Shown here piece by piece: positions 6,615 through 29,614 of a stretch of DNA of 64,000 nt; the first letter of the stretch is position 1; each line of letters begins with the position of its first letter. The notes under the pieces are model-generated. The model saw only the letters and a list, made by a program, of their open reading frames with translations, ran no database searches and was not told the DNA's origin. Made by a program: the position numbers and the translations under genes. The stretch spans positions 512,001 through 576,000 of the forward strand of contig CAWJYV010000007.1 in NCBI GenBank assembly GCA_963847185.1, given 5' to 3'. This stretch comes from an uncultured Methanosarcinaceae archaeon. Its GTDB lineage: Archaea; Halobacteriota; Methanosarcinia; Methanosarcinales; Methanosarcinaceae.

Positions 6615-6626
6615 TTTGCTTCCTCC

Positions 6627-7403: not shown

Positions 7404-7470
7404 ATTTTAACCTCCATTTAGTAAAAAGGATCCAGATTGCTCAGATCTTTGATCCCTCAAGTTACATTTC

Positions 7471-7636
7471 CCTGGAGTTCCAGACATAATTTTTGCAGGA
7501 TACTGAATGCAACGAGAATGAACTCGAAAACCTCCATAATCGAATTCATCCCATAACCTGGAGTTTCCAAGCATAATTTTGCCAGATACTTCTCTAATAC
7601 AATGAGAATGAACTCGAAAACCTCCATAATCGAATT
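7471..7636 (-). promoter_or_regulatory. Duplicated ~90-bp element in the mtaCB leader, forming two hairpins with UUAUGGAGGUUU loops
   Basis: Plus-strand GAGAATGAACTCGAAAACCTCCATAATCGAATT occurs twice, 90 bp apart; stems were paired by eye on the minus strand. Confidence 0.6.
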
Positions 7637-10385: not shown

Positions 10386-10786
10386 TTTTCGCTTATGTTC
10401 CTCTTCTTATACAGAACGTTGTGTAAAACTTTTCTACTTTAACTAGGCGTATTGTGTCAACTTTTCTATTCTCAAAGTATATTTTTCTATCTATGAATTG
10501 GAGCCTATCAAAACAGCTTGTAGCAAAAAAGAATGTTAAAAGTTAATTCAGGTTGAACCTTCAGGCTCTTAAATACTGGATAAAAGTAAAACAGATATGA
10601 ACAAATCTATTATTTTGGGGTTCAAAAAAGATCGGGAAATCCTTACAATGGATGAGCTGAGATACTTTATATAACAGAGTAAGGGTAAGCTCTTAAGGAG
10701 TAAGCAATAGTTTACAGTATTATAATAGAAAACCCGCAAACTTCAGTTCACGGGTTATCTACTACTTTGGATAAGTTTCTTTCCTT

Positions 10787-12406: not shown

Positions 12407-12724
12407 GTCTTAACCTCCTCCAAAACAGTTTAAGACTTATTCAACGATGTACTGTAAATATATTTAGTTTTTATATTTAGTTTTTAACAAAATTCAATAA
12501 GTTTTATGCTGGATAAGCTATCTTTGTGAATTTTGCTCAATCATTCACTAGGCTAAACCTCCTGAACTGACAGCCTTTTTGGACTGGATCTGGATACTAT
12601 AATTCTTGAGGTTTTTCCTGGCAAATTCTAAAAAACATGAAACGGGATAGGATATTCCGAAGCTCTAATTATTCTAGAATTTCGGAATTTACCCGTGAAA
12701 AAATAAAATAATCTTGGTGCCTTT

Positions 12725-13753
12725 TCAGGCGTAGAATTCGTCTCTTGTTGCGACCATTGCTTTGATGTTTTCGAGTGGGGTCATGGGTGCAATACCACAG
12801 CCTGGTGCGAGTACATCAATGCCGCCTTCAAGAGCTTCTCTTGCTTCAGCTTTTATCTTGTCAATAGGTCCAGGCAGAAGAGTGAAAGGACTGGATACAT
12901 TTCCTACTAATCTTGCTCTGGTTCCGATTACTTCTTTTCCCTTCTTTACGCTGCCTATTTTTTCTTCAACGCTAAGACCTTCGAAGCCACAGTCTGCCAT
13001 GTAGCTGAGAATCGGGTTAACATTTCCGCAGACGTGGAGGATGGTTACTGAGTTCACACTTGAGGAGAACTTCTGCAGTCTTGCCTTAAGGAACTGCTTG
13101 AAGGAGTCAGGGCTCATGAGGTCAGGGGAACAAACAGGGTCTGCAATAGCAATAATGTCTGCGCCTGCTTCTACCATTGCATTTGCATACATGATTGAAG
13201 CTTCTGTGGCAAGGTCAAGAACCTGCTGGAAGAGGTCAGTCTTTTTAAGGGACCATTTCATGAAGGATTTTACACTTACCAGGTCGGAAGCGACTGTGAC
13301 AGGGCCTTCCATACCGCCGATAATTGGCACATCAGGACCTACTTTTTCCCTGACAATCTTTATGGCTTCGAGTACTGCTGGGATTCTGCCTTTTTGCAGG
13401 AGGTCTGCAGGAATGGATGCACCTTCAAGGTCCTTGGGGTAAGGATGAGCAGTGACAGACGGCTGTCTGTTCTTTGTACCCATGTTGATTTCACAGCCCA
13501 TGGCTTCAACAAGAACGGTAAGACAGTATGGGAGCCTTACAGCTTCAAGTCCGCTGAGCTCATAGTTGGCAATTGCCAGCTTTGCCATAAGTTCGGGGTT
13601 TGTGTGGGATTCGGGCCATGGTGCACCTACTGTGTCCATAAGCTCCACAATTCCGGTCTGGGTAACGGAGCAAACAGGTACTTTGTCGACAGGTTCGCCT
13701 TTGAGGGCAGCTAAAAGTCTTGTTTTAAGTGTAAATTCACTCATATCGGTCAT
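12725..13753 (-). CDS. mtaA: Methylcobamide:coenzyme M methyltransferase
   Basis: 342 aa UroD fold; zinc motif HVCG and APGCG. Confidence 0.92.
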   Translation of the reverse strand: MTDMSEFTLKTRLLAALKGEPVDKVPVCSVTQTGIVELMDTVGAPWPESHTNPELMAKLAIANYELSGLEAVRLPYCLTVLVEAMGCEINMGTKNRQPSVTAHPYPKDLEGASIPADLLQKGRIPAVLEAIKIVREKVGPDVPIIGGMEGPVTVASDLVSVKSFMKWSLKKTDLFQQVLDLATEASIMYANAMVEAGADIIAIADPVCSPDLMSPDSFKQFLKARLQKFSSSVNSVTILHVCGNVNPILSYMADCGFEGLSVEEKIGSVKKGKEVIGTRARLVGNVSSPFTLLPGPIDKIKAEAREALEGGIDVLAPGCGIAPMTPLENIKAMVATRDEFYA

Positions 13754-14239: not shown

Positions 14240-17086
14240 ATGGAGAAGAAGCTGGCTGGCAGTAAAAGCAAGATTTGCTTTCTTCAAGGCAACGAACATA
14301 GTATTTCTTTTTCCGAGTTTCTTCAAAGGTTAGGAGTTGATGAGAGAGGACTTAGCGATCAGGAAGCCAAAAAGAGGCTTCAGGACTGTGGACACAACGC
14401 CCTCGAAGAAACAGGAAAGGAGAGTATATTAAAAAAGTATGTCCGACAATTCAGAAATTTTTTTACTATCTTACTGGCTATAGGAGCTCTTCTGGCTTTT
14501 CTCGGAGAATATCTCGATCCGGGAAAGGGGAATCTTTATATAGGAATTGCTCTCGCCGGAGTTGTAATCCTTAATGGAACTTTCACATTTGTGCAGGAGT
14601 ATCAGGCTGAGAAAACAATGGAAAGTTTTCGGCAGCTTCTCCCTCCTCACGCAAAGGTTCTGAGAGATGGAAAAGTAAAGGATATCCTGGCTTCGGAACT
14701 TGTTCCAGGAGATGTTATCCTTCTTGAAGAGGGAGATAAGGTTCCGGCAGATGGGCGTTTAATCGAAGTCAATGCTTTGAAAATTGATAATTCGGCTATC
14801 ACAGGCGAATCAGAACCTCAGCTGCGCTCCCTTGAATGCACTCATCCTAATATACTGGAGTGCAGGAACATGGTTTTTTCAGGAACGCTGGTACAGAGCG
14901 GAAACGGAAAAGCTATCATCTTCGGAACAGGGCAGAATACCCAGATTGGAAACCTCGCAACACTTACAGGACAGATTTCAAATGTGGATACTCCCATTCG
15001 AAGGGAACTCAATCATTTCATAAAAATAATCTCTGCAATTGCTATTTTTCTGGGAGTAACTTTCTTTATTCTCGCTTTTCTTCTTCAGGATGTCTTTCTT
15101 GCAAGCCTTATTTTTGCAATTGGGATTATTGTTGCCAATGTTCCTGAGGGGCTTTTGCCCACGGTCACTCTTGCACTTAGTCTGGCTTCGAGACGAATGG
15201 CTTCGAGAAATGCCCTTATTAAACAGCTTGAATCTGTAGAAACTCTGGGCTCAACTACTGTTATCTGTACGGATAAAACCGGGACTCTTACTCAGAATAA
15301 GATGACAGTCAATAGTCTTATGCTTGGATTTGAATGTATCGTTCTTGAGAACCCTCTCAGCTCTAAAAAACGGAATATGGAGCAGAAGATAGAAGATATG
15401 AACAGGGGTGCTGCTAAAGAAACTGCAGACTCAGGGACCGAAGGATTTTGTCTTATAGAAAAACCTGTGTGGAAGCCAGAAATATTATCATCTGTTCTCA
15501 TAAGAGTTGCAGGACTCTGTAATAACGCAAAACTTAGCGAGTTGCCTCCGGGATATACTGGTGATCCAACTGAAGGGTCACTCCTTGTTTTTGCGAACAA
15601 TATTGAAGACATAAAGCAGCTCAAGAGTGAATATCCAAGGCTTGAAGAGTTTCCTTTCGATTCTCTTACCAAAAGAATGGAAGTTATCTGCCGTACTCCT
15701 GGAGGAGAACTCGAAGTTTATCTTAAAGGCGCTCCGGAGGTAGTTGTGAAGATGTGCAGTTCAGCCACATATTCAGGAGGAATTAAGAAACTGAATGAAG
15801 CTGAACAACAGGAGCTTCTTGACCGGCACCTGAGACTTGCAAAAAAAGGAGAACGGATTATTGCTCTTGCTTACAGGCAGGCAGAAGAACAAAAGGAGTA
15901 TAACGGTGATTTTATTTTTCTTGGATTTATCGGAATTGTAGATCCCCCACGTCCCGAAGCTAGAGACGCTATTGCAAAATGCCACGCAGCCGGGATCAAA
16001 GTTGTAATGATCACCGGTGATCACCCTGTCACTGCAGAGTCAATTGCAAAGGATGTGGGACTTGCAGATTCCGGAAGCCTTGAAATTATTACGGGAGACG
16101 AGTTGAATTCACTCTCACGTACAGACCTTGCTTCAAGATTAAAAAACCCAAGCATTGTATTCGCCCGCACTTCTCCTGTGCAAAAATTAAAAATAGTACA
16201 GCTTTTCCAGGCTGAAGGGGAGATCGTAACTATGACCGGAGACGGCGTTAACGATGCTCCTGCAATCAAGAACGCAGATATGGGGGTTGCCATGGGCAGC
16301 GGCACGGATGTAGCACGCGAAGCTGCAGATATGATTCTTCTGGACGATAATTTCGCTACGATTGTAAACGCTGTTGAAGAAGGAAGGACAGTTTTCGATA
16401 ATATAAAAAAGTTCATTGTATACATTCTTGCCAGTAATGTTCCTGAGATCCTGCCTTTCATAGCTTTTGTTCTTTTTGCCCTGCCCCTTCCTATGCCTGT
16501 ACAGCTTATTCTTGCAATTGATCTGGGTACTGATATGCTGCCTGCGATTGCTTTAGGGCAGGAAAAAGGAGAAGGAGACATTATGAAAAGGCCTCCCAGG
16601 CACAAAGACGAAAAGTTGTTAACGCCTCCGATTCTTTTTACAGCTTATGGAGTAAAAGGGCCTATAGAAGCCGCTGCAGGCTTTTTCTGTTATTTTGCTG
16701 TACTTTTTGAAGGAGGCTGGAGTTTCGGCGAACAGCTCTCAAGTAATAATCCTCTTTATATGCAGTCAATAACTGCTTTCTTTTCAGCAGTTATTATCTG
16801 TCAGATTGCTAATGTTTTTGCTTCTCGAACCCGGTTCCAGTCAGTCTTCACAATGGGATTATTCAGCAACCGTATGGTTCTTCTGGGAATTGCATCTGAG
16901 CTGTTGATTCTTGCTCTTATTATCTGGAATCCATTTGCCAATCTTATTTTTAACACATCTCCCCTTGACCTCAAATATATCTTGCTTTCTGTTCCTTTTG
17001 CAGTCTTCCTGCTTGGAATTGATGAATTGAGAAAATATTTATTGAGAAAGAATGTTAGCTGGGCAGAGAGGTTCTTTAAGTGGTAA
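14240..17086 (+). CDS. Cation-transporting P-type ATPase (type IIC, Na/K-ATPase-like)
   Basis: TGES, VANVPEGL, DKTGTLT, KGAPE, TGDGVND, SNVPEI, IDLGTD. Confidence 0.92.
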   Translation: MEKKLAGSKSKICFLQGNEHSISFSEFLQRLGVDERGLSDQEAKKRLQDCGHNALEETGKESILKKYVRQFRNFFTILLAIGALLAFLGEYLDPGKGNLYIGIALAGVVILNGTFTFVQEYQAEKTMESFRQLLPPHAKVLRDGKVKDILASELVPGDVILLEEGDKVPADGRLIEVNALKIDNSAITGESEPQLRSLECTHPNILECRNMVFSGTLVQSGNGKAIIFGTGQNTQIGNLATLTGQISNVDTPIRRELNHFIKIISAIAIFLGVTFFILAFLLQDVFLASLIFAIGIIVANVPEGLLPTVTLALSLASRRMASRNALIKQLESVETLGSTTVICTDKTGTLTQNKMTVNSLMLGFECIVLENPLSSKKRNMEQKIEDMNRGAAKETADSGTEGFCLIEKPVWKPEILSSVLIRVAGLCNNAKLSELPPGYTGDPTEGSLLVFANNIEDIKQLKSEYPRLEEFPFDSLTKRMEVICRTPGGELEVYLKGAPEVVVKMCSSATYSGGIKKLNEAEQQELLDRHLRLAKKGERIIALAYRQAEEQKEYNGDFIFLGFIGIVDPPRPEARDAIAKCHAAGIKVVMITGDHPVTAESIAKDVGLADSGSLEIITGDELNSLSRTDLASRLKNPSIVFARTSPVQKLKIVQLFQAEGEIVTMTGDGVNDAPAIKNADMGVAMGSGTDVAREAADMILLDDNFATIVNAVEEGRTVFDNIKKFIVYILASNVPEILPFIAFVLFALPLPMPVQLILAIDLGTDMLPAIALGQEKGEGDIMKRPPRHKDEKLLTPPILFTAYGVKGPIEAAAGFFCYFAVLFEGGWSFGEQLSSNNPLYMQSITAFFSAVIICQIANVFASRTRFQSVFTMGLFSNRMVLLGIASELLILALIIWNPFANLIFNTSPLDLKYILLSVPFAVFLLGIDELRKYLLRKNVSWAERFFKW

Positions 17087-17370
17087 CTTTAAATAACTAC
17101 TATTATTTTTTTACCTGGCAATGTTGAAATTTATTTTGACTTTTAGGCCCTCATTTAAGATTCTTTTCTTGCATAAAAGGCTTAAAAGCTCTATTTTGGC
17201 CAAAAAGAAAAAAATTAATCCTATTTATCTAAAATTCTAAAAAAATTATTTTATTATGAGAACAATAGAAAACTTTTATATAGGATTCTAATTTAATTTT
17301 ATCTGTTGAATTTCTGTTATAATATTTTCCTGTTCATTCCAATCTCCAACCCATCGTCAGAGTTTAAAGT

Positions 17371-20300
17371 ATGAATGTTAGTAAAAAGATCCTTGTTATT
17401 ATTTACATTATTTTTGCTCTTCTTACTTCAGTTGTTATTTTCGCGTCTCAGAATATCCTTTATTCAAGTTTTTCTTCCCTTGAGGATGATGAGGCAAATG
17501 ATAGCCTGGAAAGTGCAAGAAACTTCCTCGATTTTCAGGTTATGCAATTAAATGAGACTAATTCCGTGCTTTCCTCAAGGGAAGATGTCAGAGCTTTTAT
17601 GTTCAGTCAGGACCCTGGAGATCTCAGCAGGATTTCTTTCACAGATCTTTTCTCCCTAAGTGGATGTGACTTCATTTTTCTTGCGAATAGTTCAGGAAAT
17701 ATAATTTATAAGTTTTCGGGATCAAATAATACCAGTGATGCCCTGATATTTTCCGAGATCACAAGAAAAATAGATGGTGGAAATCTCCTTTGCAAGGACG
17801 CAAAAAGTCCTCTAAGTGGGCTTCTTACAATAGGAAGCAACTTTTCAATCGTTTCTTCTCACCCTGTACTTGCGGCACCCAATAGTGAAGAGATGATCGG
17901 GACAGTTATTCTGGGTAAGAATCTGGAACCCGATTTTACCTATTCTTTGCGCAATATTGCAGGAAATCATGTTTCGCTTTTTACTGAGGAATCAGCACCT
18001 GATTATTTGCAGCAAGCATTTCTAGACAATAAAAGCGAAAGTGTCTCATATACTGTCACAGCAAATGGAGTATCTCGAAATTATTGTATTCTCAAAGATA
18101 TCAATAATGAAACAGCTGCTGCGGTCCAGATAGACGCTAACAGTGATATAAGTGCAGTAGGCCAAGAATCTCTCAGGTACATTGTAATTTTCCTTTTGTT
18201 TGCAGGTCTGATGATTGGGGCAGGCTGTAAACTTCTACTTGATAAAGAAGTAGCCTCGAGGATAGTAGCAATTGATAATTTTGTGGAAAAGGTCGGAAAG
18301 GATGAAAATTCTTCTGAACGCTTCTCCATGGATGGAGACGATGAACTTTCACGATTGTCAGAGGGAATTAACCAGATGCTTGACCGTCTGAAAACGACTT
18401 CTGATAAAATCAAAATTCAAGAGCGTGAAAAAAACGTAATCCTCAATTCTCTCAGTGAGATGGTGGTTTTTATGGATCCAGACTTGAAGATCCTCTGGAT
18501 GAATAAAGCCTCTCTGGGCCACCTAAATCTAAAGTTTGAGGGCATAGTCGGACACCGTTATGAAGAGATCTATAGCTTATATCATAAGAATCCGGGTAAA
18601 TCTCCTGTACTGAAGGCAATAGAGTCCGGAAGCGAAGAGCTAGGGGAAGTCGTTACTCCTGATGGAAAGGTATGGATGATTCGTGCGAGCCTTGTGAAGG
18701 ATGAAAATGGTAAAATTACCGGTATTCTCCAGACAGGTCTCGATATTACCGAACATAAGCGTTCAGAAGAAAAGCTAATTCAGGCAAAACTGGAAGCTGA
18801 AGCTGCCAACCGTACAAAAAGTGAATTCCTCGCTAATATAAGTCACGAATTAAGGACGCCTCTGAATTCTGTCATCGGATTTTCGGATATCCTGCTTGAA
18901 AGGGTTTTCGGAGAGCTCAATGATAAACAATTAAAATATATAAATAACATCTCTACCAGTGGGAAGCATTTACTAAAACTCATAAATGATATCCTCGATC
19001 TCTCCAAAGTAGAAGCCGGAAAAATGGAACTTCATTACAGTGAATTTTCTGTTGATTCAGTTTTTGAGGAGGTTAAAGTAGTTCTCATCCCTCTCGCTCA
19101 GACAAAATCACTTGAGATTTACTTCAACGTAAAATCCGAGTTTACAACTCTTGAGGCTGACAGAAGCCGCCTGATTCAGATCCTTTATAACCTTGCAAGC
19201 AATTCAATCAAATTTACTCCCGAAGGGGGAAAAGTCACCATTTCTTGTATAAAGAGTGGAAGCTTAGCGTTAATCTCAGTAACAGATACCGGCATAGGAA
19301 TTTCTGCTGAAGACCAGAGAAAACTTTTCCAGCCTTTTACCCAGATTGATGCTTCCTCATCCAGACAGTATTGTGGAACAGGACTCGGACTAGCTCTTGT
19401 GAAAAAAATTGTAAATTTACATCAGGGAGATATCTGGGTTGAGAGTGATATTGGAAAAGGCAGCACTTTTACATTTTCAATTCCTCTTAGAAAACCGATC
19501 GATTCCAGGAAAGCTAATGAATCAGAACTCGAAGATGTTGTCCTGAATTTCGAGACGAACAAAGCGGAGGCGTTCTCAAAAGAATCTGCCGATGATCTTC
19601 AGGCCGATATAGAGATACTTGAAAGTTATCTCCCTGAAACAGAAGGTGGGAATCAGGGGCTTGTTCTTGTAGTTGATAACGATAAAAATTCCAATGATCT
19701 CCTTTCTATTGTATTAAGAGAGGCAGGGTATAGTATAGCTTCTCTTTTTAATGGGAAAAGTGTTCTGGAGACTGCAAGGAGGCTCAAACCTGATATTATT
19801 ACTTTTGATGTCCTCCTTCCAGACATTGATGGTTGGATTGTTTTGAGACAGCTCAGAAATGATCCTCAAACTGCCTCAATTCCGATACTTATTATTTCTT
19901 CGACAAATAATAACGAACTTGGAATTGTTCTTGGAGCGACATATTCCTTTACAAAGCCAGTAAAAAGATCAGAGATTGTGGGTTCCCTCAAAGAAATCAC
20001 CGGTAAATTACGGTTTGAAAATCCAAGAATTCTCGTTGTCGACAATGATGAAAATAACGTAGAACTGTTGAGTTCTATGATCGAACCCGAGGGTTTTGAG
20101 GTGGTCAAAGCTTATAGCGGAAGAGAAGGTCTGAAAAAGCTCTTTTCAGAAAAACAGCCTGATGTAGTAATCCTTGATCTTATGACGTCTTGTGTTAGTG
20201 GTTTTGATGTGATCTCAAGCATGAGGGCACATTTAAGCACAAAAAATGTTCCTCTTATTGTCTGCACGTCTGGGCAACTCACTGAGAAAAACATTAAAGA

Positions 20301-20436
20301 ATTGAACAGTAAATTGAAAGAGCATTTTATTTCTATTTTGAAAAAAGGCACTTTCGGAAGAAAAGAGTTAATTAATAGGATAAAACAATTAGCTATGCTG
20401 AAGAGGCTTAACGATGAAAGAAATTCTGATTGTTGA
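17371..20436 (+). CDS. Membrane hybrid sensor histidine kinase (CHASE4-like, HAMP, PAS, HisKA, HATPase, two REC domains)
   Basis: 2 TM segments; SHELRTPLN H-box, N/G1/F/G2 boxes and two C-terminal receiver domains. Confidence 0.92.
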   Translation: MNVSKKILVIIYIIFALLTSVVIFASQNILYSSFSSLEDDEANDSLESARNFLDFQVMQLNETNSVLSSREDVRAFMFSQDPGDLSRISFTDLFSLSGCDFIFLANSSGNIIYKFSGSNNTSDALIFSEITRKIDGGNLLCKDAKSPLSGLLTIGSNFSIVSSHPVLAAPNSEEMIGTVILGKNLEPDFTYSLRNIAGNHVSLFTEESAPDYLQQAFLDNKSESVSYTVTANGVSRNYCILKDINNETAAAVQIDANSDISAVGQESLRYIVIFLLFAGLMIGAGCKLLLDKEVASRIVAIDNFVEKVGKDENSSERFSMDGDDELSRLSEGINQMLDRLKTTSDKIKIQEREKNVILNSLSEMVVFMDPDLKILWMNKASLGHLNLKFEGIVGHRYEEIYSLYHKNPGKSPVLKAIESGSEELGEVVTPDGKVWMIRASLVKDENGKITGILQTGLDITEHKRSEEKLIQAKLEAEAANRTKSEFLANISHELRTPLNSVIGFSDILLERVFGELNDKQLKYINNISTSGKHLLKLINDILDLSKVEAGKMELHYSEFSVDSVFEEVKVVLIPLAQTKSLEIYFNVKSEFTTLEADRSRLIQILYNLASNSIKFTPEGGKVTISCIKSGSLALISVTDTGIGISAEDQRKLFQPFTQIDASSSRQYCGTGLGLALVKKIVNLHQGDIWVESDIGKGSTFTFSIPLRKPIDSRKANESELEDVVLNFETNKAEAFSKESADDLQADIEILESYLPETEGGNQGLVLVVDNDKNSNDLLSIVLREAGYSIASLFNGKSVLETARRLKPDIITFDVLLPDIDGWIVLRQLRNDPQTASIPILIISSTNNNELGIVLGATYSFTKPVKRSEIVGSLKEITGKLRFENPRILVVDNDENNVELLSSMIEPEGFEVVKAYSGREGLKKLFSEKQPDVVILDLMTSCVSGFDVISSMRAHLSTKNVPLIVCTSGQLTEKNIKELNSKLKEHFISILKKGTFGRKELINRIKQLAMLKRLNDERNSDC

Positions 20437-20779
20437 AGATAATCCAATGAATATGGAACTGATTCTGGATCTTCTGGAATTCTATGGGCACAACGTAACA
20501 GAAGCTGAGGACGGGATAAAAGCTCTTGAACGCCTTGCTGAGAAAAAGTTTGATCTCATCCTGCTGGATATGCAACTTCCAAAAATGGATGGTTTGGAAG
20601 TTCTGGATCGAATAAAAAAGAATCCTGCAACTGCGGCTATCCCTGTGATAGCTGTTACAGCCCATGCTATGAAAGGTAGTGAAGAGCATTTCATTGAAAT
20701 GGGCTGCGTGGATTATATTTCCAAACCCCTTGATATCCACAAGTTCAGGGCTTTGATTGATAAATATCTGGGAGAATAA
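20414..20779 (+). CDS. Single-domain response regulator
   Basis: 121 aa; VEDN, LLDMQLP, VTA, YISKP; overlaps the kinase 3' end. Confidence 0.93.
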   Translation: MKEILIVEDNPMNMELILDLLEFYGHNVTEAEDGIKALERLAEKKFDLILLDMQLPKMDGLEVLDRIKKNPATAAIPVIAVTAHAMKGSEEHFIEMGCVDYISKPLDIHKFRALIDKYLGE

Positions 20780-20878
20780 TCACCTGAGAAAATAACCGCC
20801 TGAGAAAATAATCGTCTGAGAAAATAATCGTCTGAGAAAATAATCGCCTGAGAATAATTCCCCGGAGAATAATCACCT
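20772..20878. repeat. Degenerate 14-16-bp tandem repeat x7 (GAGAAAATAATCGYCT)
   Basis: Seven adjacent units between two convergent genes. Confidence 0.88.
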
Positions 20879-20894
20879 GGCTTCATAATTAAAA

Positions 20895-21689
20895 TTATAT
20901 TTTCTCAATACGTCTGGACATCTCTTTATAATATACGAAGAGCTCTTCGCACCATCTAAGTGCGGTTTCGTCAAAACTCATCAGACGTTGATGGTCAAAC
21001 TTTCCCTTTTTATCGAAAAGTACAAGCGAACAAAAACGTTCTGTTACAACATCTTTAAGCGTTACGTTTTTGTCACAGACGTATATTTCAATGTTTTTCG
21101 ACTCTACAAGAAATTTCAGACTCTCGTAGTAGTCTTTTTTCATCCTCTCAAACACAGACTCTGTCAGGATGAGACATATTTCAGCTTCCTTTCTTACGAG
21201 TTCAGAGTAAATCTCAATGTAAAGGGGGTTGAAATAAGAAAGAAACATTTTTATGTGCTTTGATTCTAGAAGGTTATTCTTAAAATCTTCAGGCACCTCA
21301 AAAAGCCTGTTAAGATCCGCCTCAAGCATGAAATAGTTTCCCAATTCATTAATCCTGTTAAGAAGATGTTCGGGAATTGCAGTAAAATCATGGTTTGTCC
21401 AGTAATCGTAATTTTCCTCAAACACCCTTACGGTATCCAGCAGGGGCTCCATCTTTTCTACTACTATCTCCCCCATTTCAGAGAGTTTGTAGGTGTTTCT
21501 GTCATCCTGCACTATTAATCGTCCCTCTTTTAATTTTTTTATCTGGGGCATGATAGAAGTCGAATTGACATTAAGGGCAGTTTTGATTTCATCTCCAGTT
21601 TTAGGTCCTTCCTCAAGCAGGAGCAGCACATCTTTTCTTTTTTCTGATAAAAATGCCAAGTCAATAAGTGATATTTTCATTTTATCCAT
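20895..21689 (-). CDS. ArsR-like winged-helix regulator with DUF1724-type C-terminus (Msr-like family)
   Basis: FLSEKRKDVLLLLEEGPK...PQIKKL HTH and ALRWCEELF terminus; start placed at ATG 21689 or 21680 rather than 21761. Confidence 0.82.
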   Translation of the reverse strand: MDKMKISLIDLAFLSEKRKDVLLLLEEGPKTGDEIKTALNVNSTSIMPQIKKLKEGRLIVQDDRNTYKLSEMGEIVVEKMEPLLDTVRVFEENYDYWTNHDFTAIPEHLLNRINELGNYFMLEADLNRLFEVPEDFKNNLLESKHIKMFLSYFNPLYIEIYSELVRKEAEICLILTESVFERMKKDYYESLKFLVESKNIEIYVCDKNVTLKDVVTERFCSLVLFDKKGKFDHQRLMSFDETALRWCEELFVYYKEMSRRIEKI

Positions 21690-22349
21690 CTCCCCGGAAA
21701 CTCTTGAATGTACCTGAAAAAGCTCTTCTCTTTTATCTCTTGGAAAACAATAATATGACAATAGTCCTTTCTATTTTCTAAAGAATATAATTGAGGGGCT
21801 TTGCGAAATAATACTACACTATTTTTCAGTTGATTCCTTATATTTTTTTCCAAAAAAACTTATTTTTTATATAAATTCCTTTTTCACTCTTTTTTTCTTT
21901 TTAGAAATTTTCTTTAAAAATTACTTTCCGTCAATTACTTCTTTATTCAAAGTTTTAAACTTCTTTTTGACTTTTAGGCAATTTTTTAGTTCCTTCCCTA
22001 ATTTTTCTCTATAATATCAAGCTGTAATTTCCGTTCTGGGGTTAAATGTTGTTTTTCTCAGTCCTTGAAAAGTATCTGATGCTCTCTTTGAAAATTCATC
22101 TTTAAGGATTCTCTTTTCAATTTCTCCATGTGGGATAACCTAACGTCTAAAATTATGTACTATTATTTATATTTTTTCCAGTATCTTAATTGGCTTTGTT
22201 TACGTCCTCATAAAACTGAAGATAAAAGAGATCGGTCTGAAGATATATTTTTATAAGAAAAATGAGATAAAACCAGAGAAAAGGTAAGAGTGAAGTGAGG
22301 AATAAACGAAAAAGGGATTTTCTGCACGGGGCAGAAAAAATTTCATAAA

Positions 22350-22862
22350 TTATTTTGAGGCTTTTTTTACAAGAGCAAGAATTCCGCGCAGGATTTCTTT
22401 CGGTGAGGGAGGGTTTCCCGGAATCTTCATATCAACTGGCAGAATCTTATCAACACCTCCGAGAACGGCATAAGAACCTTTATAGATCCCGCCGTCGCAG
22501 GCATCGTCTCCTGCTGCGACCACAAATTTTGGAGAGGGCATGGCTTCATAGGTTTTTCTGACTGCTTCAGCCATATTCAGGGTTACTGCACCTGTGACTA
22601 GCAGGATATCGGCATGTCTCGGAGAAGCTACAAAAGATATCCCGAATCTTTCAACATCATAGTAGGGTGTTCCCAAATTCGAAATTTCAATTTCAGTTGA
22701 ATTATCGCTTCCGGAATCCAGCTCGCGGATTGCAAGGCTGCTCCTGAAAACTTTCGGGATTTCCTTCTTTATTTCCGCACCAAGGGTTTCTAATTCTTCA
22801 TCTCGAAATTCAAAGGTCTCAGTAACTTTCGGACGGAGGAATAGGGAAAGAGGATTTACCAT
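22350..22862 (-). CDS. Ehr/hydrogenase-4 small subunit (NuoB-like) lacking the Fe-S cysteines
   Basis: SPRHADILLVTG and TYEAMPSPKFVVA conserved; the Cys motifs read SDNST, GDDA and PGNPP. Confidence 0.85.
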   Translation of the reverse strand: MVNPLSLFLRPKVTETFEFRDEELETLGAEIKKEIPKVFRSSLAIRELDSGSDNSTEIEISNLGTPYYDVERFGISFVASPRHADILLVTGAVTLNMAEAVRKTYEAMPSPKFVVAAGDDACDGGIYKGSYAVLGGVDKILPVDMKIPGNPPSPKEILRGILALVKKASK

Positions 22863-22903
22863 AGTTAAGCCTCGCATGTTTCTTTATTTTTTCATCATAA
22901 TAC

Positions 22904-24506
22904 TCAAAGGTCGGTTCCTGCATACGAAAGGTTAAGACTCTTATTAATCAGGGGGAAGTCAGGAACAATATTTCCGAGCACTGCATGTTCTATGGCCTGC
23001 CAGTTGCAGAATGAGGCAGTCCTTACCTTATAACGGTCAATGATCCCGTCTTTCAGGTAAACCCAATGCAGGTTCTGTCCTCTTGGAGCTTCTATCAGGG
23101 CAAGAGAGTAGCCGGTGGTCCGCATGTCGGAGTCATATTTAGCAGCATACACAGGCCCTCCAGAAACTCTTTCTATAAGCTGCAGGATAAGTTTTAAGGA
23201 AGCCCGAATTTCATCGGCTTTTACCTCAAACCGGGAGAATACATCTCCTTTTTTTCGAACTGAGGATTCAGGAGCAAATTTTTTGTAGGCTCCATAGGGC
23301 TTATCAATCCTGGTATCTGCAGGACAGCCCGAAGCTCTTGCCAGGGGGCCTGTGAGGTTAAGTGGGGAAATAAGCTCTTTTTTTATTACTCCCTGTCGTT
23401 GCAAATCTATCAATAAGGGAAGATGAGGACATAGCCCTCTCAAAAGCCTGTTCAAATACCTTGGAGAATTTTTTCAGGAAAGCAGGAAGTTCATTTAGGG
23501 ACGTATCTGATAAATCTTTTTTAAGCCCGCCAGGGGTCATAATTCCTCTTAAAAACCTTGAACCTGTAAGCTTTTCGTTTTGTCTCAAAACCTCTTCTCT
23601 TAATATCAAGAAAGGGCTTGCTACAAGAGCAAAACCTACATCTACAGCCATGCCTGCGAGGTCCCCAAGTAATGAGTAAATCCGTTCAAGTTCCAGTACC
23701 ACTGCTCTCAAATGTTCTGCTCTTTCCGGCACTTCTATTCTATAGATCTGTTCCACAGCCATGCAAAATCCTGCTGCATTTGCCGCACTTTCGTCCCCAC
23801 TTACGGCCTCGGCAAGAGGGACACACTCCAGGGGAGTCTTTCCTTCAGCCAGTTTTTCTATGCCCCTGTGCTTGTAAAACAACCGGATTTCCAGGCTGAA
23901 AATGGGTTCTCCTATTACACTGAACCTGAAATGTCCGGGCTCAATAATTCCTGCATGGACAGGCCCTACAGGAATCTGGTACACACCTTCTCCTTTCACC
24001 TGCCTGAACCTGTATTCTGTACTGGAGGACTCGGCAGGAAGGATGGGCCCATTTTTGAATCCTTTTTGCAGGGGATGGAAGTCTTCAGGATAACATTCAT
24101 GCAGGAAGAGTCTTCTGTTATCAAACGCTCCTGCAAACTCCAGTCCGAAGCCATCTCTTATTTCCCGCTCAAACCAGGAAGCTGAAGGGAAAATCTCAGC
24201 AACTGAATGAATCTTTTTTTCTTTCCTGGTTTCAAGGACAAGAACCAAAATATGCGCCCTACCGGCCTGCTTGAAAACATAAAAAAGATTAAAATCAGTG
24301 TTTTTCTCAAAAGCTTCTGCGCAGAAGAGCCCTATAAGGCTGAAGCTCCTTTCTGCGAGGATTTCAGATACCTTTCGAAGTCCGGTTTCCGAGATACCAA
24401 TATATGTCTCGTTTTCGCGGGTATTGAGGAGTGTTGCCTCTTCTTCTGCAATACTCGAAATTTTTGAAACTATTTCAATTGCACTTATGTTAGTTTTCAT
24501 ATCCAT
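22904..24506 (-). pseudogene. Ehr/hydrogenase-4 large subunit (NuoC+NuoD fusion) split by a +1 frameshift near 23392
   Basis: Removing one base from the CCC at 23391-23393 joins ...DRFATTG to VIKKELISPLNLTGPLARASG; GPVHAGIIEPGHFRF and EAPRG motifs present; no NiFe CxxC motifs. Confidence 0.8.
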
Positions 24507-24517
24507 GTACAAACCCC

Positions 24518-26065
24518 TCACAAATATCCAAGCTCAAGAATTATTGAATCAAGCAGATTTCTCAAAGGTTCTGGGAAATAAAGTCCCAGAACAAGGGCAA
24601 GGACCAGCAGGAAAATTGTCGGGATCCTCATTCCTCTCCTTACATTATAAGGTGAAATCAAATTACTTTTTTTGTGGCTGATTTTTTCAGTGAGTTTTTC
24701 AGTGAGTTTTTCAGATCCCGTTCTTTCAGAAGCCAGGGATTTGTTCTCATGTCCTTCTTTTCCTTCCTCGAGAGAAACTCTTGAGAAAGCTTTTAACAGG
24801 AAGTTTGCAAAGGATGCGGATGCAAGGATAAGCATTAGCAGCAGCGCCAGGGTCAGATAGGGTGAAATTTTTGCGCTCTCCAGAAGAATAAAAAACTTCG
24901 CCGGGAAAAGAGGGAAAGGCGGCATCCCTACTATGGCTATGCTCCCCAGAATAAGAGTCCATGCTGCACGTGGTTGGAGTTTAAATACATCCTTTATATC
25001 TTCACGCATGTTGCTTCCGTACTGCCTGTGCAGGACACCTGCAGAAAAGAGCAAAATTTCCTTTATCAGGACATGGCCAAGCATATAAAAAAGAACCCAG
25101 AAAAGAGCAAGAGGAGTTCCTATTCCTATCCCTATAAGAAGAAGTCCCATGTGCTCGACACTTGAAAAGGCTATCAATTTCTTCAGGTTTCTCTGCTGAA
25201 GCATACTGAATGAAGCCAGAGCAATTGAGAAAACTCCTGCTGCTATCAGGATTAAAGACGCCTGTGGAGCTACCTCACTCTCTTTAAGCAGAGCATATAT
25301 CCTGATAATGCCGTAGATCCCCAGATTTTGCATGAGCCCTGAGAGAATTGCACTTACTGATGGGGCTCGTGCGTAAGCATCCGGAATCCATGTATGGAAA
25401 GGAGCTATTCCTGCTTTTGCTCCGAAACCTATGAAGACAAAGGTAAAACTCGCAAGGAGGAGGGGAGGTGAAAAACTTGATGCATTCGCTGCAAGTTTTG
25501 TCCAGCTAAGAGTTCCTTCCCCTAGAGTTAGTTCCGAAAGAGTGAAAAGGAAAATCAACCCAAGGAACGCAAAAAGCATGGATCCGGAGACTATGAAGAC
25601 ATATTTTAGGGCGGCATCTATGTTTTCTCTTGCGGAAAGGATTGCTACAAGTACGGCAGCGCAGACTGTCGTAAGCTCTACAAAGATCCAGAAAAGCGCC
25701 AGATTATCCGAAAAAAGCGCAATAGTAGCCGTGACAAGCAGGAGGTTAAAAGCAAGGTAGAAAGTTTTCAGGTTTTTGGGGTCAAGATCTCCTGCTTCCA
25801 TAAGGCTGTCGGTATATCCCTTGGCATAGAAGGCTGCTGCAGAGAATCCAAGTGCAGTTATCAATTCCACATAAAGGTTGAGGTGGTCCAGGTAAAGATA
25901 GTCTCCATACCGGGCAGGCAAATCAAGGACTAGTAATGCTGCGCAGGTTAGAACAAGATGCAGCAGGGCATTGCCTGCGGCAAGGAAATTCATGAGTTTG
26001 TGGGATTTTGGAATAAGGCCCAGAGCCAGAAAAATTCCCATTGTTAAGAGGTAGTAACGGATCAT
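24518..26065 (-). CDS. hyfF: Proton-conducting antiporter-like subunit (HyfF-like)
   Basis: AKAGIAPFHTWIPDAY, KKLIAFSSVEHMG; ATGA overlap with the upstream gene. Confidence 0.85.
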   Translation of the reverse strand: MIRYYLLTMGIFLALGLIPKSHKLMNFLAAGNALLHLVLTCAALLVLDLPARYGDYLYLDHLNLYVELITALGFSAAAFYAKGYTDSLMEAGDLDPKNLKTFYLAFNLLLVTATIALFSDNLALFWIFVELTTVCAAVLVAILSARENIDAALKYVFIVSGSMLFAFLGLIFLFTLSELTLGEGTLSWTKLAANASSFSPPLLLASFTFVFIGFGAKAGIAPFHTWIPDAYARAPSVSAILSGLMQNLGIYGIIRIYALLKESEVAPQASLILIAAGVFSIALASFSMLQQRNLKKLIAFSSVEHMGLLLIGIGIGTPLALFWVLFYMLGHVLIKEILLFSAGVLHRQYGSNMREDIKDVFKLQPRAAWTLILGSIAIVGMPPFPLFPAKFFILLESAKISPYLTLALLLMLILASASFANFLLKAFSRVSLEEGKEGHENKSLASERTGSEKLTEKLTEKISHKKSNLISPYNVRRGMRIPTIFLLVLALVLGLYFPEPLRNLLDSIILELGYL

Positions 26066-26748
26066 AAGTATCTGCCTCCTGTCCATATCTGCAGTTTTCT
26101 AAATTTCTGCCTGTACTCCTCAATACTTGAATCCATTCCTACAGCCAGGATAGTTGTTAGCATTACCAGTATCACAAGGTCAATTATTATCAGGACTTCT
26201 ATTATGAAAGGAATTTCAGTGACAAAGAGTCCGAACATCAAGACTCCATTTTCCATACTGAGGTAACCCAGAGCTTTTGTAATTACTCTCTTCCTGCTGA
26301 AAATGACAAGCATCCCCATCAATGTTAAAGAAACTCCTATGACAGCCCCGAAGAAGAAGAGCTTTGAGAGGGAAAGGTCTTCGAAGATCCGGGAAAGGAA
26401 AGAATAGGAAAGCAGGATAAGGCCTATGCTTAACAGAAGAGAAGTTGTAGGTTCGAGATAGGTAAAATGCAAATCTCTTCCGATTTTGATTTTTTCTTCT
26501 ATCCTGGAGATAAAGTATGGGATTAAAATCACTTTACTTGTCAGGGTCAGGCCTGCCAGTAGCAAAAGCTGTCCCTTCCCGTCTATAAGGTAGAGAAGGA
26601 CCGAGACTGCAGCAAGCAGGAAGGATTGGATGGTATATGTGGTCAGAACTGAACTAAGGTTACGGGTTGAGATGATCAAACCTGCACTGATGAGGACAAA
26701 AACAAAAAGGATCTTGATTAGACCTTCAATAAAGAGGGGGTCAATCAT
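26062..26748 (-). CDS. hyfE: HyfE-like membrane subunit
   Basis: 228 aa hydrophobic protein with GYLSMENG motif; position in operon. Confidence 0.82.
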   Translation of the reverse strand: MIDPLFIEGLIKILFVFVLISAGLIISTRNLSSVLTTYTIQSFLLAAVSVLLYLIDGKGQLLLLAGLTLTSKVILIPYFISRIEEKIKIGRDLHFTYLEPTTSLLLSIGLILLSYSFLSRIFEDLSLSKLFFFGAVIGVSLTLMGMLVIFSRKRVITKALGYLSMENGVLMFGLFVTEIPFIIEVLIIIDLVILVMLTTILAVGMDSSIEEYRQKFRKLQIWTGGRYL

Positions 26749-27686
26749 GCAAACACCTCTATAAGAATTGTAAGGGCTGAGAAGAAAAATGCCATCACGT
26801 AAAAAGCAGGAAGCCTGAAGAGACGCATCTTTGCGAGGGATGACTCAAAGAGTCCTATAATGATGGCAAGCAGCCCGGCTTTCAGAAGAAAGAGGACAGC
26901 TGAAACTGCAATTTTTCCTGAATTTAACTCAGTACTGAGTCCTATCGGAATAATAGTATTGATTAATATTCCCATCAAAAGTAACTGTTTGAGAGCGTGG
27001 GCAAGCTCGAGTAGGGCCAGATTCTTTCCAGTCTGTTCCAGTATCATGGCCTCATTAATCATTGTTAACTCAAGATGGGTTGCCGGGTTGTCGACAGGCA
27101 GCCTGCCGGTCTCCACAATAAGAATTATAAAAAGAGAAATTGAGACCAGGACAAGTGTAGGGTTCAGAGGAAGAATCTTGCTTGCTGTCAGCGCAAACAT
27201 TTCATGCATATTCAGGCTTTTAAGGACAAAAGCAAGGGCTGCAAAAGATACCACCATACTTGGTTCTATTACGGCTGCCAAGCTCATCGAACGGGAACTT
27301 CCCATGCCCCCAAAGGCACTTCCTGCATCAAGTCCTCCAAGTGCCGTAAAGAAACGCTCCAGTGCCAGGAGATAGAGGAAAACGATAACATGGCCGAATC
27401 CTCCCACGGGTTCGGGTACAAACACCAGGGGAACAAAGAGGGAAGCAATGAGCAGGGTAGAAAGATTAAGGTATGGAGTAAAACGCATAATCCAGGAGGA
27501 TGTAGGAGAATAAACTGTCTCTTTGTGCAGAAGTTTCCTCAAATCATAATATACCTGGAAAAGTCTTGGCCCTTTTCTTCCCTGGGCATATGCTTTTACT
27601 TTCCTTATAAGAGCCATATACAGAGGGGCTGCCAGTAAAGCGAAGATGGGATTTAACACGGCGAAGAGCAGAAAGGAACTGTTCAT
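26745..27686 (-). CDS. hyfC: NuoH-like membrane subunit (HyfC/HycD)
   Basis: QGRKGP, GMGSSR, ETGRLPVDNPATHLELTMI. Confidence 0.87.
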   Translation of the reverse strand: MNSSFLLFAVLNPIFALLAAPLYMALIRKVKAYAQGRKGPRLFQVYYDLRKLLHKETVYSPTSSWIMRFTPYLNLSTLLIASLFVPLVFVPEPVGGFGHVIVFLYLLALERFFTALGGLDAGSAFGGMGSSRSMSLAAVIEPSMVVSFAALAFVLKSLNMHEMFALTASKILPLNPTLVLVSISLFIILIVETGRLPVDNPATHLELTMINEAMILEQTGKNLALLELAHALKQLLLMGILINTIIPIGLSTELNSGKIAVSAVLFLLKAGLLAIIIGLFESSLAKMRLFRLPAFYVMAFFFSALTILIEVFA

Positions 27687-29614
27687 ACGAGACCTCCGGT
27701 CACGAGAATCAGGATGAGAACTGCAATAAATGCATAGAGGACATAACTGTCAAGTTTTCCGTTCTGCAGTTTTGAGACCATCTTTGAAATACTGTCGATT
27801 GCATATGCAGGTGGAGTATAGAGATACTCCTCAAAAATGCGAAGCAGGCGAATTTCCACTTTTCCGTTTTTGAAAAGACTTTCCTGCATATCAAAATATT
27901 CAGGTTTATGTACTATTCTTGTTCTGTAGATACCTTTGAAAATCATTACAAGCGGTTCGGAGAAACCCGCAGAGCTGTATTCCATTGAAGAAGTAAGGGC
28001 TGGAATTCCACAGCCCCAGGTTTCGCTGATTCGGGCAGGGTTCTTTGAACGCATTATAAGGAAAAGAGCCGTGTATGTCAGACCAAGCAAAAGTCCGAGC
28101 AGGAAAAGATCCGGAAATTCTAAGTTCAGGCCTGCAAGGGAAAGGAGCTGTTTTGAAAAGAGTCCTGTAAGGATGCAGAGGACTGCAGGTACGGCCGGGC
28201 CAAAAAGCATGGGGTTTTTGACTTCTTCTGCCATTTTGCTTTGTTCCGAACGAGGAATGGCCAGACATGTAATCCCGAAAAGTTTTACGAATAGGACAGC
28301 TGCAAGAGCACCTGTAAGAGCAAAACTTGAGAGTGCGATTATTAAAAGCACGGTAAGCAGGGGTTCGGTAAGGGCTGAAGACTGTAGAAAAGCCTGGTAG
28401 AGCAGGAGTTCTCCGGCAAAACCGTTTGTCGGAGGAAGAGCTGCAATAGAAATTGACCCTATCATGAAGAGAGCCGAGGTTGAAGGCATGCTTTTTACAA
28501 GGCCTCCGAAAGCTTCGATGTTTCGCGTACCTGTAGCATGGACTATTGAACCTGCACAGAGGAAAAGGAGACTTTTGAAAAGGGCATGGTTAAAAGAGTG
28601 GAAACAGGCTCCTGCGAGGCTTAATAGGGCTAGAGCTTCCAGCCCCTCTACTTTAAATATTACATACATGCCTATCCCGATAAAAATGATCCCTATGTTT
28701 TCGATACTGCTGTAGGCAAGCAGTCTTTTTATGTCACTTTCTTTAAGGGCGTAGATCACTCCCAATAAAGCCGTGACACAGCCTCCTATAAGAATGAGCA
28801 CTCCCCACCAGAGTTCGGGGACGGAAACAGAGAGTAAAAAACGTAGAAAGCCGTAGATTGCAACCTTTAGCATGACACCTGACATAAGAGCTGAGGCGCT
28901 GGAAGGAGCTGCAGGATGGGCATATGGAAGCCATTTGTGGAAAGGTACAATCCCTGCTTTGATCCCAAAACCAGTGAAAAGGCAGAGGAAGGGCAGAGCC
29001 AGGGAGCTTGCCGGGTAATCCAGCTGTCCGAACTCAGCAGAACCGGTAAGCCTGAAAAGGCTTATAAAACCCAGGAAAAGAAAAGTTGTACTCAGGCTTG
29101 TCATTACAAAGTAAAAGAAACCTGCTTTTTTGTTTTCTTCCGAGGAATAATTATGGAGCACAAGAAGCAGGGAGGAAAGGGACATTATCTCCCAAAAAAA
29201 CAGGAAGCCTACCATATTTCCTGCAAGCACCACAAGGAGCATTGCAAGAATAAAAAGATTTGTGAGGGCTGTTTGCAGGTTCTTTCTGGCTTCGCTTTCA
29301 GCATGTTCCACGTATTCGACCGAATAAATTGAAACTCCGGGTATAACTGCTGCAATTAGCAAAATGAAGCCTGCTGAAAGTCGATCTGCAGCAAGAGTGA
29401 AATTCAATCCGGGAAGATATCCGAAGGTTGGAAAGGCAGGCTCTTTTCCTGTGTAAAGAATAATGCCTGCAAAAGCCAGGAGCAGGATTGAAGAAATTAA
29501 AGATAGGCCGAAGGAAGCCTTTCTTGTGTTTTTAGTGCGGTACAGAAGGGGGAGGAAAGTTCCGGATATCAGGGCTAAAACAGCGCTGTAAATAAAGGCT
29601 TCGAGCAAATACAT
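27683..29614 (-). CDS. hyfB: NuoL/MrpA-like antiporter subunit (HyfB)
   Basis: KAGIVPFHKWLPYAHPAAPS, KRLLAYSSIENIG, WGCG. Confidence 0.88.
   Translation of the reverse strand: MYLLEAFIYSAVLALISGTFLPLLYRTKNTRKASFGLSLISSILLLAFAGIILYTGKEPAFPTFGYLPGLNFTLAADRLSAGFILLIAAVIPGVSIYSVEYVEHAESEARKNLQTALTNLFILAMLLVVLAGNMVGFLFFWEIMSLSSLLLVLHNYSSEENKKAGFFYFVMTSLSTTFLFLGFISLFRLTGSAEFGQLDYPASSLALPFLCLFTGFGIKAGIVPFHKWLPYAHPAAPSSASALMSGVMLKVAIYGFLRFLLSVSVPELWWGVLILIGGCVTALLGVIYALKESDIKRLLAYSSIENIGIIFIGIGMYVIFKVEGLEALALLSLAGACFHSFNHALFKSLLFLCAGSIVHATGTRNIEAFGGLVKSMPSTSALFMIGSISIAALPPTNGFAGELLLYQAFLQSSALTEPLLTVLLIIALSSFALTGALAAVLFVKLFGITCLAIPRSEQSKMAEEVKNPMLFGPAVPAVLCILTGLFSKQLLSLAGLNLEFPDLFLLGLLLGLTYTALFLIMRSKNPARISETWGCGIPALTSSMEYSSAGFSEPLVMIFKGIYRTRIVHKPEYFDMQESLFKNGKVEIRLLRIFEEYLYTPPAYAIDSISKMVSKLQNGKLDSYVLYAFIAVLILILVTGGLV

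Follow-up and report, generated by a model that had tools for sequence, protein, structure and literature searches.

An Ehr-type operon of six subunit types

We analyzed a stretch of 64,000 nucleotides, hereafter the window, which spans positions 512001-576000 of contig 7 in the 4.04-Mb, 10-contig genome of an uncultured Methanosarcinaceae archaeon, and which carries an Ehr-type, complex-I-like operon on its minus strand (22350-29614; Table 1). To judge by the names of near-identical proteins and loci in the databases, the genome belongs to Methanosarcina. The genes follow the order N1-H-E-N2-L-S and encode NuoL-like, NuoH-like, HyfE-like and NuoN-like membrane subunits together with a NuoCD-like large subunit (L) and a NuoB-like small subunit (S), and matches to Pfam, NCBIfam and the Protein Data Bank (PDB) are mutually consistent in assigning these six subunit types. 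Most adjacent open reading frames (ORFs) of the operon overlap by a few bases and are translationally coupled, and the gap between L and S is ~41 nt. A first-pass annotation, made from the letters alone, had given the bounds of the operon exactly, 22350 being the edge of S and 29614 the start of N1; its description of a six-gene operon holds for the subunit types, but the present assembly contains seven ORFs, with L represented by two that overlap.

Family assignments came from Pfam, NCBIfam and structure matches. N1 matches NCBIfam NF006418 with 993 bits (cut-off 794) and has HycC (7z0s_C, 9.5e-66) as its best solved relative; H matches HycD (7z0s_D) at 6.6e-38; and N2 matches NF006427 with 740 bits (cut-off 511). 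For E, the Pfam search gave no match, and its assignment draws on NF008556, “hydrogenase 4 membrane subunit”, at 1.1e-16 and 61 bits, which is under the cut-off of 136. The probable start of S is M6 at 22862. Both its sequence and its predicted fold place S in the NuoB/HycG-fold family PF01058: it also matches NF005012 with 132 bits (cut-off 116), and its AlphaFold2 model, with a predicted local distance difference test score (pLDDT) of 93, matches NuoB/PSST, HycG (7z0s_G) and MbhJ (6cfw_J) in Foldseek at template modeling (TM) scores of 0.69-0.86. The Pfam search found no Fer4 domain in any of the seven operon ORF pieces, in agreement with the earlier view that a ferredoxin subunit is absent, and no NuoE, NuoF, NuoG, NuoI or FpoF gene within the operon.

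Table 1. Features of the operon and its downstream neighbors, with the median pairwise ratio of nonsynonymous to synonymous substitution (dN/dS; Nei-Gojobori) among the window copy and 16 genus relatives (17 copies)
Feature	Position in window	Strand	Evidence or remark	dN/dS
N1, HyfB/HycC/NuoL-like antiporter-like subunit (EhrA-like)	27683..29614	-	643 aa; Pfam PF00361, 7e-62	0.08-0.11
H, NuoH/HycD-like subunit (EhrB-like)	26745..27686	-	313 aa; Pfam PF00146, 1e-34	0.04-0.08
E, HyfE-like membrane subunit (EhrC-like)	26062..26748	-	228 aa; NCBIfam NF008556, below cut-off	0.045-0.07
N2, HyfF/NuoN-like antiporter-like subunit (EhrD-like)	24518..26086	-	522 aa; Pfam PF00361, 1.3e-48	0.10-0.11
L N-terminal piece, NuoC domain and first half of NuoD/HycE-like domain	23358..24521	-	387 aa to premature stop; PF00329, 3.1e-19; PF00346, 1.2e-07	0.09-0.14
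Extra base (G within ACAGGGAGTAAT) shifting the L frame	23389..23393	-	read in sequence	
L C-terminal piece, second half of NuoD/HycE-like domain, other frame	22904..23455	-	Pfam PF00346, 1.6e-28	0.09-0.14
S, NuoB/HycG-like small subunit (EhrS-like)	22350..22877	-	Pfam PF01058, 4.1e-27, 94.9 bits (cut-off 27)	0.04-0.085
FilR1/DUF1724-type helix-turn-helix regulator	20895..21761	-	Pfam PF08350, 3.8e-38; PF25213; ~590 nt downstream of S	
Response regulator, single-domain	20414-20779	opposite to operon		
CHASE4-PAS hybrid histidine kinase	17371-20436	opposite to operon	two receiver domains	
P-type cation ATPase	14240-17083	opposite to operon		

Loss of Fe-S and NiFe ligands

The four columns that bind the [4Fe-4S] cluster in the family are occupied in S by D58, T61, D125 and N155, and the surrounding motifs read GSDNSTE, GDDACDGG and PGNPP, where Cys-complete relatives carry GSCNGCE / GxCxxxGG / PGCPP. 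By direct reading, each replacement codon (GAT at 22704-22706, ACT at 22695-22697, GAT at 22503-22505 and AAC at 22413-22415) is two changes from TGT/TGC, so both motifs and codons are as the first-pass annotation gave them. In an alignment of S, the 150 nearest representatives of clusters at 50% identity and the genome's own Ech and Fpo small subunits (154 rows), C/C/C/C stands at these columns in 100 rows, including the genome's own Ech paralogues. The sole Cys in the whole S protein is C127. It had been singled out earlier as a remaining non-canonical Cys, which is correct in that S has only one, but it is not novel: many all-Cys relatives have Cys in the same column (for example, GACACSGG), and because it is common there we judge the Cys at 127, from the alignment, to be ancestral.

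The large subunit has likewise lost its metal ligands, as had been claimed. Aligned to EchE of the same genome, the N-terminal piece has S241 and E244 (codons 23799-23801 and 23790-23792; motif AEAVSGDES) at the first CxxC pair (CGIC), and the C-terminal piece has S177 and G180 (codons 22925-22927 and 22916-22918; motif NKSLNLSYAGTDL) at the second (CISC). The residues S/E/S/G at these four NiFe columns are invariant in 66 of 66 full-length orthologues, in which the motifs AEA[VI]SGDE[ST]xANA and NKS[LMF]N[LM]SYAGTDL are invariant or nearly so.

NiFe and Fe-S ligands are thus absent from the complex. Lacking both NiFe CxxC motifs, L has the feature by which surveys, in their passages on the group, define Ehr (PMC10284858, PMC6349859, PMC7304191). 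The operon is set apart from group 4 [NiFe] hydrogenases by having neither the four NiFe cysteines nor the four small-subunit cluster cysteines (D/T/D/N instead), and by the absence from the operon of a NuoI/HycF-like 2x[4Fe-4S] subunit; and it is set apart from complex I and Fpo by the lack of cluster N2 in the NuoB-like subunit and of an electron-input module.

Selection and conservation

All six genes have low dN/dS (Table 1). Within the genus, all 17 copies carry D58, T61, D125, C127 and N155, and the codons for these residues vary synonymously (GAT/GAC, ACA/ACG/ACT, TGT/TGC and AAC/AAT). Because the residues at the ligand columns are invariant across synonymous codon changes, and because dN/dS is low, we attribute the replacements to selection rather than decay, in line with the first-pass annotation; judged by these substitution patterns, strong purifying selection acts both on the S replacements and on each of the six genes. 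Among the genus copies we saw neither a close orthologue with the cysteines nor neutral decay: all are Cys-less at the ligand columns and have low dN/dS.

The same pocket was then followed across 80 loci, with one genome per species and S at 65%-94% identity. These loci are labeled Methanosarcina, Methanoregula and other Methanomicrobiales, Bathyarchaeota, Altiarchaeales, Thermoplasmata, Nanoarchaeota and Aenigmatarchaeota. At S columns 58/61/125/127/155 they read DTDCN (50 loci), DADCN (19), DPDCN (5) or DVDCN (3), with DTECN, DPDIN and DPDCD in one locus each; D58 is therefore kept in 80 of 80 loci and D125, C127 and N155 each in 79, whereas position 61 holds T in 51 loci, A in 19, P in seven and V in three. 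To the earlier question of whether D/T/D/N marks a conserved clade, the answer is yes for the Methanosarcina copies, with their low dN/dS, but not at position 61 over the wider set. A conserved site of four oxygen donors, which had been proposed, is unsupported because position 61 varies; moreover, the third position is often Gly in other Cys-less lineages.

S is the best-conserved subunit, being 82%-90% identical to its counterpart in a second Methanosarcina subgroup, whereas N2 is 52%-56% identical; in other archaeal lineages the ranges are 65%-73% for S and 37%-57% for N2. Across 60 sequences of H, conservation reaches at least 97% in 84 of 313 columns, among them E141, E192, R195, D199, H204, E206, E212, E217 and E227, and the conserved residues of E include K72, D92, R152, E166, E184 and D190.

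Distribution and Cys-less relatives

The gene order N1-H-E-N2-L-S is consistent in all 80 loci. All seven query pieces were found in 68 of them, and the rest are mostly cut by contig ends, with one locus having S only. Several named Methanosarcina isolates carry the operon. It is nevertheless dispensable, since it was found in 39 of 58 other genus genomes, and in 28 of the 39 high-quality ones when the present genome is counted. The S identity of 65%-73% is seen in metagenome-assembled genomes (MAGs) labeled Bathyarchaeota, Altiarchaeales, Thermoplasmata, Nanoarchaeota and Aenigmatarchaeota, and such high identity between phyla suggests either extreme constraint or transfer from one archaeal lineage to another. 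In a tree of L, Methanosarcina forms one clade, Methanoregula another, and the remainder a mixed group. One Altiarchaeales MAG has the start of a second operon copy (N1-H-E-N2; locus L060:14290-19187) ~3.8 kb downstream of the first S gene.

Loss of the S cysteines extends beyond these loci. The general statement that small subunits normally keep their cluster, on which the first-pass annotation drew, proved only partly true: Cys-less forms are widespread, and in 30 of the 150 nearest representatives no more than one of the four ligand columns holds Cys, with patterns that include DADN, DAAD, SEGD, NEGD, DVDD, DEDS and SAES. Few of these bear names, and those that do come from Chloroflexota/Dehalococcoidia; others are from metagenomes. 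In a 139-row S tree with the ligand columns masked (129 columns, poorly resolved), Cys-less rows are scattered among all-Cys rows, which corresponds to 18 changes by parsimony; well-supported branches force at least four. We cautiously read this as repeated loss of the S cysteines.

The nearest all-Cys relative of S with a known context lies in a sister operon found in other Methanosarcinales families (loci L029-L032; for example, L031:1394-9314), with the order N1-H-E-N2-L-ferredoxin-S-Usp and with proteins 40%-54% identical to those of the window. Its L is also without NiFe cysteines (VSGDNS, SLSYSGNDM), as in the window type, with which it shares the gene order. However, it has three things that the window type lacks: a 112-aa, 2x[4Fe-4S] ferredoxin encoded between L and S, a Usp gene after S, and an S that is itself all-Cys (GSCNxCE, GSCACxGG, PGCPP). 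Because the sister operon has both the ferredoxin subunit and the S cluster ligands, and the window type neither, the two features are either both present or both absent. The sister operon resembles a stage midway between hydrogenases and the cofactor-free type, with Fe-S still present, and the comparison suggests a series from hydrogenase to Ehr with an Fe-S chain, and from there to Ehr without the ferredoxin subunit and the S cluster.

Comparison with known systems

Ehr is a known kind of complex, and the window operon is another case of it. The ehrABCDLS genes of Geobacter sulfurreducens (GSU0739-45) are described in the relevant part of PMC7894505 as encoding NuoL-like EhrA, EhrB, HyfE-like EhrC, EhrD, large EhrL and small EhrS, and the corresponding passage of PMC4704411 gives the same six subunit types for Methanospirillum hungatei (Mhun_1817-1822); as far as these passages go, the set is that of the window operon. 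The descriptions of Ehr in the passages cited here mention the NiFe loss only, whereas the window operon is without Fe-S ligands too. In the literature searched, which did not include the founding Ehr papers, no passage describes an Ehr small subunit without Fe-S ligands, though such a description may be in print.

Among solved structures, the best relatives belong to formate hydrogenlyase (FHL) of Escherichia coli (FHL-1, 7Z0S; Hyf/FHL-2 is hyfBCEFGI), namely the HycC and HycD matches given above and HycG at 7.9e-30, and the NCBIfam names of the window subunits are those of hydrogenase 4 subunits B, F and E. Several features of FHL, however, are absent from the window operon: the NiFe site, a small subunit with Fe-S, the ferredoxin subunit HycF/HyfH and the formate dehydrogenase module. 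The membrane-bound hydrogenase (MBH) of Pyrococcus furiosus (6CFW) is similarly close, with MbhJ 43% identical to S at a TM score of 0.86, MbhH at 1.2e-58 and MbhM at 3.3e-24; but MBH is a hydrogenase that oxidizes ferredoxin, and it contains three Fe-S clusters as well as a NiFe site and an Mrp-like Na+ module, whereas the window operon has no recognizable redox sites. The Fpo/complex I of the same genome shares NuoB, NuoC, NuoD, NuoH and NuoL/M/N homology with the window operon, but its FpoB retains the cluster cysteines that S has lost, and it has FpoI and FpoF, for which the operon has no counterpart. Fpo reduces methanophenazine.

The system that the window complex most plausibly works like is the Mrp antiporter, a redox-free translocator built of NuoL/M/N-like subunits, to which N1 is related (MrpA, 7.6e-44). 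Homologues of NuoB, NuoD and NuoH are missing from Mrp, however, and Ehr lacks MrpB, MrpE, MrpF and MrpG; instead of the MrpA-G set, the operon has only antiporter-like and HyfE-like subunits of that kind. The Mrp marker PF03334 was not found in the present genome.

A proposed redox-free complex-I-shaped translocator

In the membrane arm, both antiporter-like subunits retain their channel residues, and H has many conserved acidic residues. The channel residues of N1 are E142 (88 of 88 orthologues), K219 (87/88), H226 (88/88), K250 (86/88) and E402 (87/88), and in N2 they are E137 (89/89), K224 (88/88), H231 (89/89) and K397 (85/88). We take these to be the Glu of transmembrane helix 5, the Lys and His of helix 7 and the Glu or Lys of helix 12, an assignment made by motif, following the NuoL/M/N literature. 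The equivalent residues carry protons in the membrane arms of complex I, Mbh and Mrp.

We therefore read the operon as a fully cofactor-free Ehr subtype, with six subunits and no redox ligands, that acts as a redox-free ion translocator, and we think the chance that this is right is somewhat better than even. The first-pass annotation had arrived at a complex without a recognizable redox cofactor, and this, we infer, is what the operon encodes. Such a complex would be unable to pass electrons and would instead be a redox-independent translocator of cations or protons, Mrp-like in principle, in which the cytoplasmic cap formed by L and S would seal or gate the NuoH-type channel. This cap would be lined by conserved acidic or polar residues (D58, D124, D125, C127 and N155 of S; S241, D243 and E244 of L). 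A further step, in which the substituted residues form a new ion- or ligand-binding relay that drives or gates translocation in a redox-free complex-I-shaped machine, is conceivable but improbable.

Several observations weigh against the translocator reading. Conservation of the pocket is unexceptional, as 67 of 175 S columns (38%) are at least 97% conserved. In N2 the Lys of transmembrane helix 8 is not kept, with N/S/T/M in its place. S is the most constrained subunit although the need of an antiporter for an L/S cap is not obvious, and this hints at a specific function in that part of the complex. Ehr and the Mrp marker PF03334 co-occur, Ehr being present in 11 of 12 genus genomes with the marker and in 29 of 47 without it; a role for Ehr as a substitute for Mrp was rejected on this co-occurrence. 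In the present assembly L is frameshifted, and the present copy may make no complete complex.

Four other readings of the family were considered. It could be argued that the former cluster pocket of S (D58, D125, N155, with C127 and D124) now binds another metal or a small ligand that gates or powers the complex. Near-complete retention of D58, D125, C127 and N155 across archaeal phyla is consistent with such a site, as are the standing of S as the best-conserved subunit, the preference of other Cys-less lineages for D/E/N/S (position 1 is D in 16, S in five and N in three of the 30 representatives) and the gain of D243 and E244 in the former NiFe motif of L, invariant in 66 of 66. However, variation at position 61 leaves at most three or four ligands, Gly (9/30) or Ala (3/30) at the third position in other Cys-less lineages argues against a family-wide site, C127 is ancestral and common in all-Cys relatives, and 38% of S columns are equally conserved, so that we regard a new binding site as rather unlikely. 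The opposite reading, in which the whole cluster is a decaying hydrogenase remnant at the level of the family, would account for the loss of every cofactor ligand, but it is refuted by dN/dS of 0.04-0.14 across all genes, by ligand columns that are invariant with synonymous variation only, and by conservation over 80 loci, with gene order and open frames kept across archaeal phyla; we assign it next to no probability.

The complex might alternatively still be a redox enzyme that receives electrons from ferredoxin or from a docking dehydrogenase through an unrecognized cofactor. In the passages concerned, the M. hungatei genome paper places ehrABCDLS among the enzymes that “likely reduce Fd” (PMC4704411), Geobacter Ehr subunits increase on formate (PMC7894505), and a complex of formate dehydrogenase and Ehr has been proposed in Margulisbacteria (PMC6349859). 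Against this, S has a single Cys and L no CxxC pair, there is no ferredoxin subunit, unlike in the sister operon, and there is no conserved redox-partner neighbor, given that each flanking family is limited to 20 of the 80 loci at most; a redox function is improbable on this evidence. Less probable again is a non-redox pump coupled to chemistry, such as CO2/bicarbonate conversion in the manner of cyanobacterial NDH-1 with CupA or of DAB systems. A beta-carbonic anhydrase (PF00484, 9.4e-50) does lie upstream of the operon on the opposite strand in 10 loci, but all of these are Methanoregula-type, so that the pairing is synteny in one lineage and counts as one event, and no carbonic anhydrase was found either in the scan of 39 window ORFs or in the Methanosarcina-type loci, whose flanks were searched for the beta type only.

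If the redox-free translocator reading holds, it matters beyond this genome. Ehr complexes are common in anaerobes and have had no function assigned since they were named. The Methanosarcina/Methanoregula type has no redox-center ligand and yet is among the most constrained genes of its neighborhood, and it is for this combination that we see in it a redox-free relative of complex I, with a bearing on how the coupling machinery of complex I could run without electron transfer. Genome papers still count Ehr as ferredoxin-reducing hydrogenases, at least in the passage of PMC4704411 on these genes; metabolic reconstructions of methanogens should not count an operon of the window type as a hydrogenase. 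What the window adds is the contrast with a ferredoxin-bearing sister operon, the D-x-D-C-N signature across archaeal phyla, and the presence of the operon in cultured Methanosarcina. As these are genetically tractable, the two-decade-old question of Ehr function becomes directly testable, with knock-outs and tagged purification both feasible.

A one-base insertion in the present copy of L

The extra base near 23389-23393 divides L between overlapping ORFs of different frames, a feature overlooked in the first-pass annotation, and it lowers the value of the present copy. Both L pieces share one frame in 16 of 16 genus loci fetched, and the base is missing from nine of nine genus relatives that a motif search could place (seven of the 16 were not located and were left out). 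Metagenome contigs of three runs (X1, X3 and X4, from two studies and ~98% identical) omit exactly one base at 23389; a fourth run (X2) gives no cover there. A programmed frameshift was rejected, as the extra base is absent from relatives and metagenome contigs. The insertion is the only indel over 1701 nt against a 97.8%-identical contig and lies outside any long homopolymer.

We consider a sequencing or assembly error and a very recent inactivating mutation about equally likely. If the frameshift is real, the operon of the present genome would be a recently inactivated strain relic of a family that functions elsewhere, and this we hold to be a serious possibility, if a little short of even. 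One extra base does split L, its isolation in an otherwise indel-free alignment and its position away from long homopolymers are in keeping with a true mutation, and an operon that is absent from 11 of 39 high-quality genus genomes can evidently be lost. No split occurs in any of the genome's 47 strong matches to ABC_tran domains, although the sample is too small to settle the matter, and a second hydrogenase-type small-subunit gene of the genome is frame-split as well. On the other side, the remaining operon genes are full length, dN/dS of the window copy against relatives equals that among relatives, and frame breaks in L occur in six of 78 public loci, all from one MAG assembly series that is also broken in other genes, where they look like assembly error. 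The number of overlapping out-of-frame ORF pairs proved too noisy as a measure of frameshift rate (120/Mb in this genome, 359-538/Mb in reference loci) and was dropped.

The second frame-split gene encodes the small subunit of a Vht/Vhx-type periplasmic hydrogenase and lies at contig 10:613742-614264, with PF01058 positions 1-68 and 60-127 on overlapping ORFs; an intact paralogue is found at contig 10:607970-608488. In one genus relative it is N1 that is split between frames (query residues 3-112 and 111-639), with the rest of the operon intact.

Genomic neighborhood

Downstream of S, the FilR1-type regulator, which may or may not be part of the Ehr system, has its orthologue cluster in 19 loci, all Methanosarcina-type, a synteny confined to one genus. 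The same applies to the set from the ATPase to this regulator (ATPase, kinase, response regulator, FilR1-type regulator; 14240-21761), which is syntenic with the Ehr operon in 16-19 Methanosarcina-type loci. Upstream of the Methanoregula-type operons there is instead a set comprising a ferritin, a glutaredoxin, a ferredoxin:thioredoxin-reductase-rubredoxin fusion and a 112-aa protein without a Pfam family, and the beta-carbonic anhydrase mentioned above stands beside this set, divergently oriented (for example, L057:1615-2193 (-)). When 1266 flanking ORFs were clustered, no non-core family was found in more than 20 of the 80 loci; the flanks are lineage-specific. A search for riboswitches and other RNA elements found no Rfam family at gathering score anywhere in the window.

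Elsewhere in the window, two tandem hydantoinase/oxoprolinase-like genes occupy 1-2953, each with Hydant_A_N and Hydantoinase_A domains and the first cut by the window edge. A methanol methyltransferase cluster follows at 5232-13753, with MtaB, the corrinoid protein MtaC, a CobW-type GTPase with a His-rich tail, a RACo/RamA-type activase and a URO-D-type methyltransferase, and upstream of mtaC there is a stretch of 1.8 kb (7404-9206) in which no long ORF occurs. On the other side of the operon, 30351-64000 is a large surface-polysaccharide region that encodes many glycosyltransferases and sugar-nucleotide enzymes, a flippase and two disaggregatase-related proteins (43457-46483 and 47303-48775). 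Its place upstream of the operon is taken in other Methanosarcina by RibD_C and an ABC-2 transporter.

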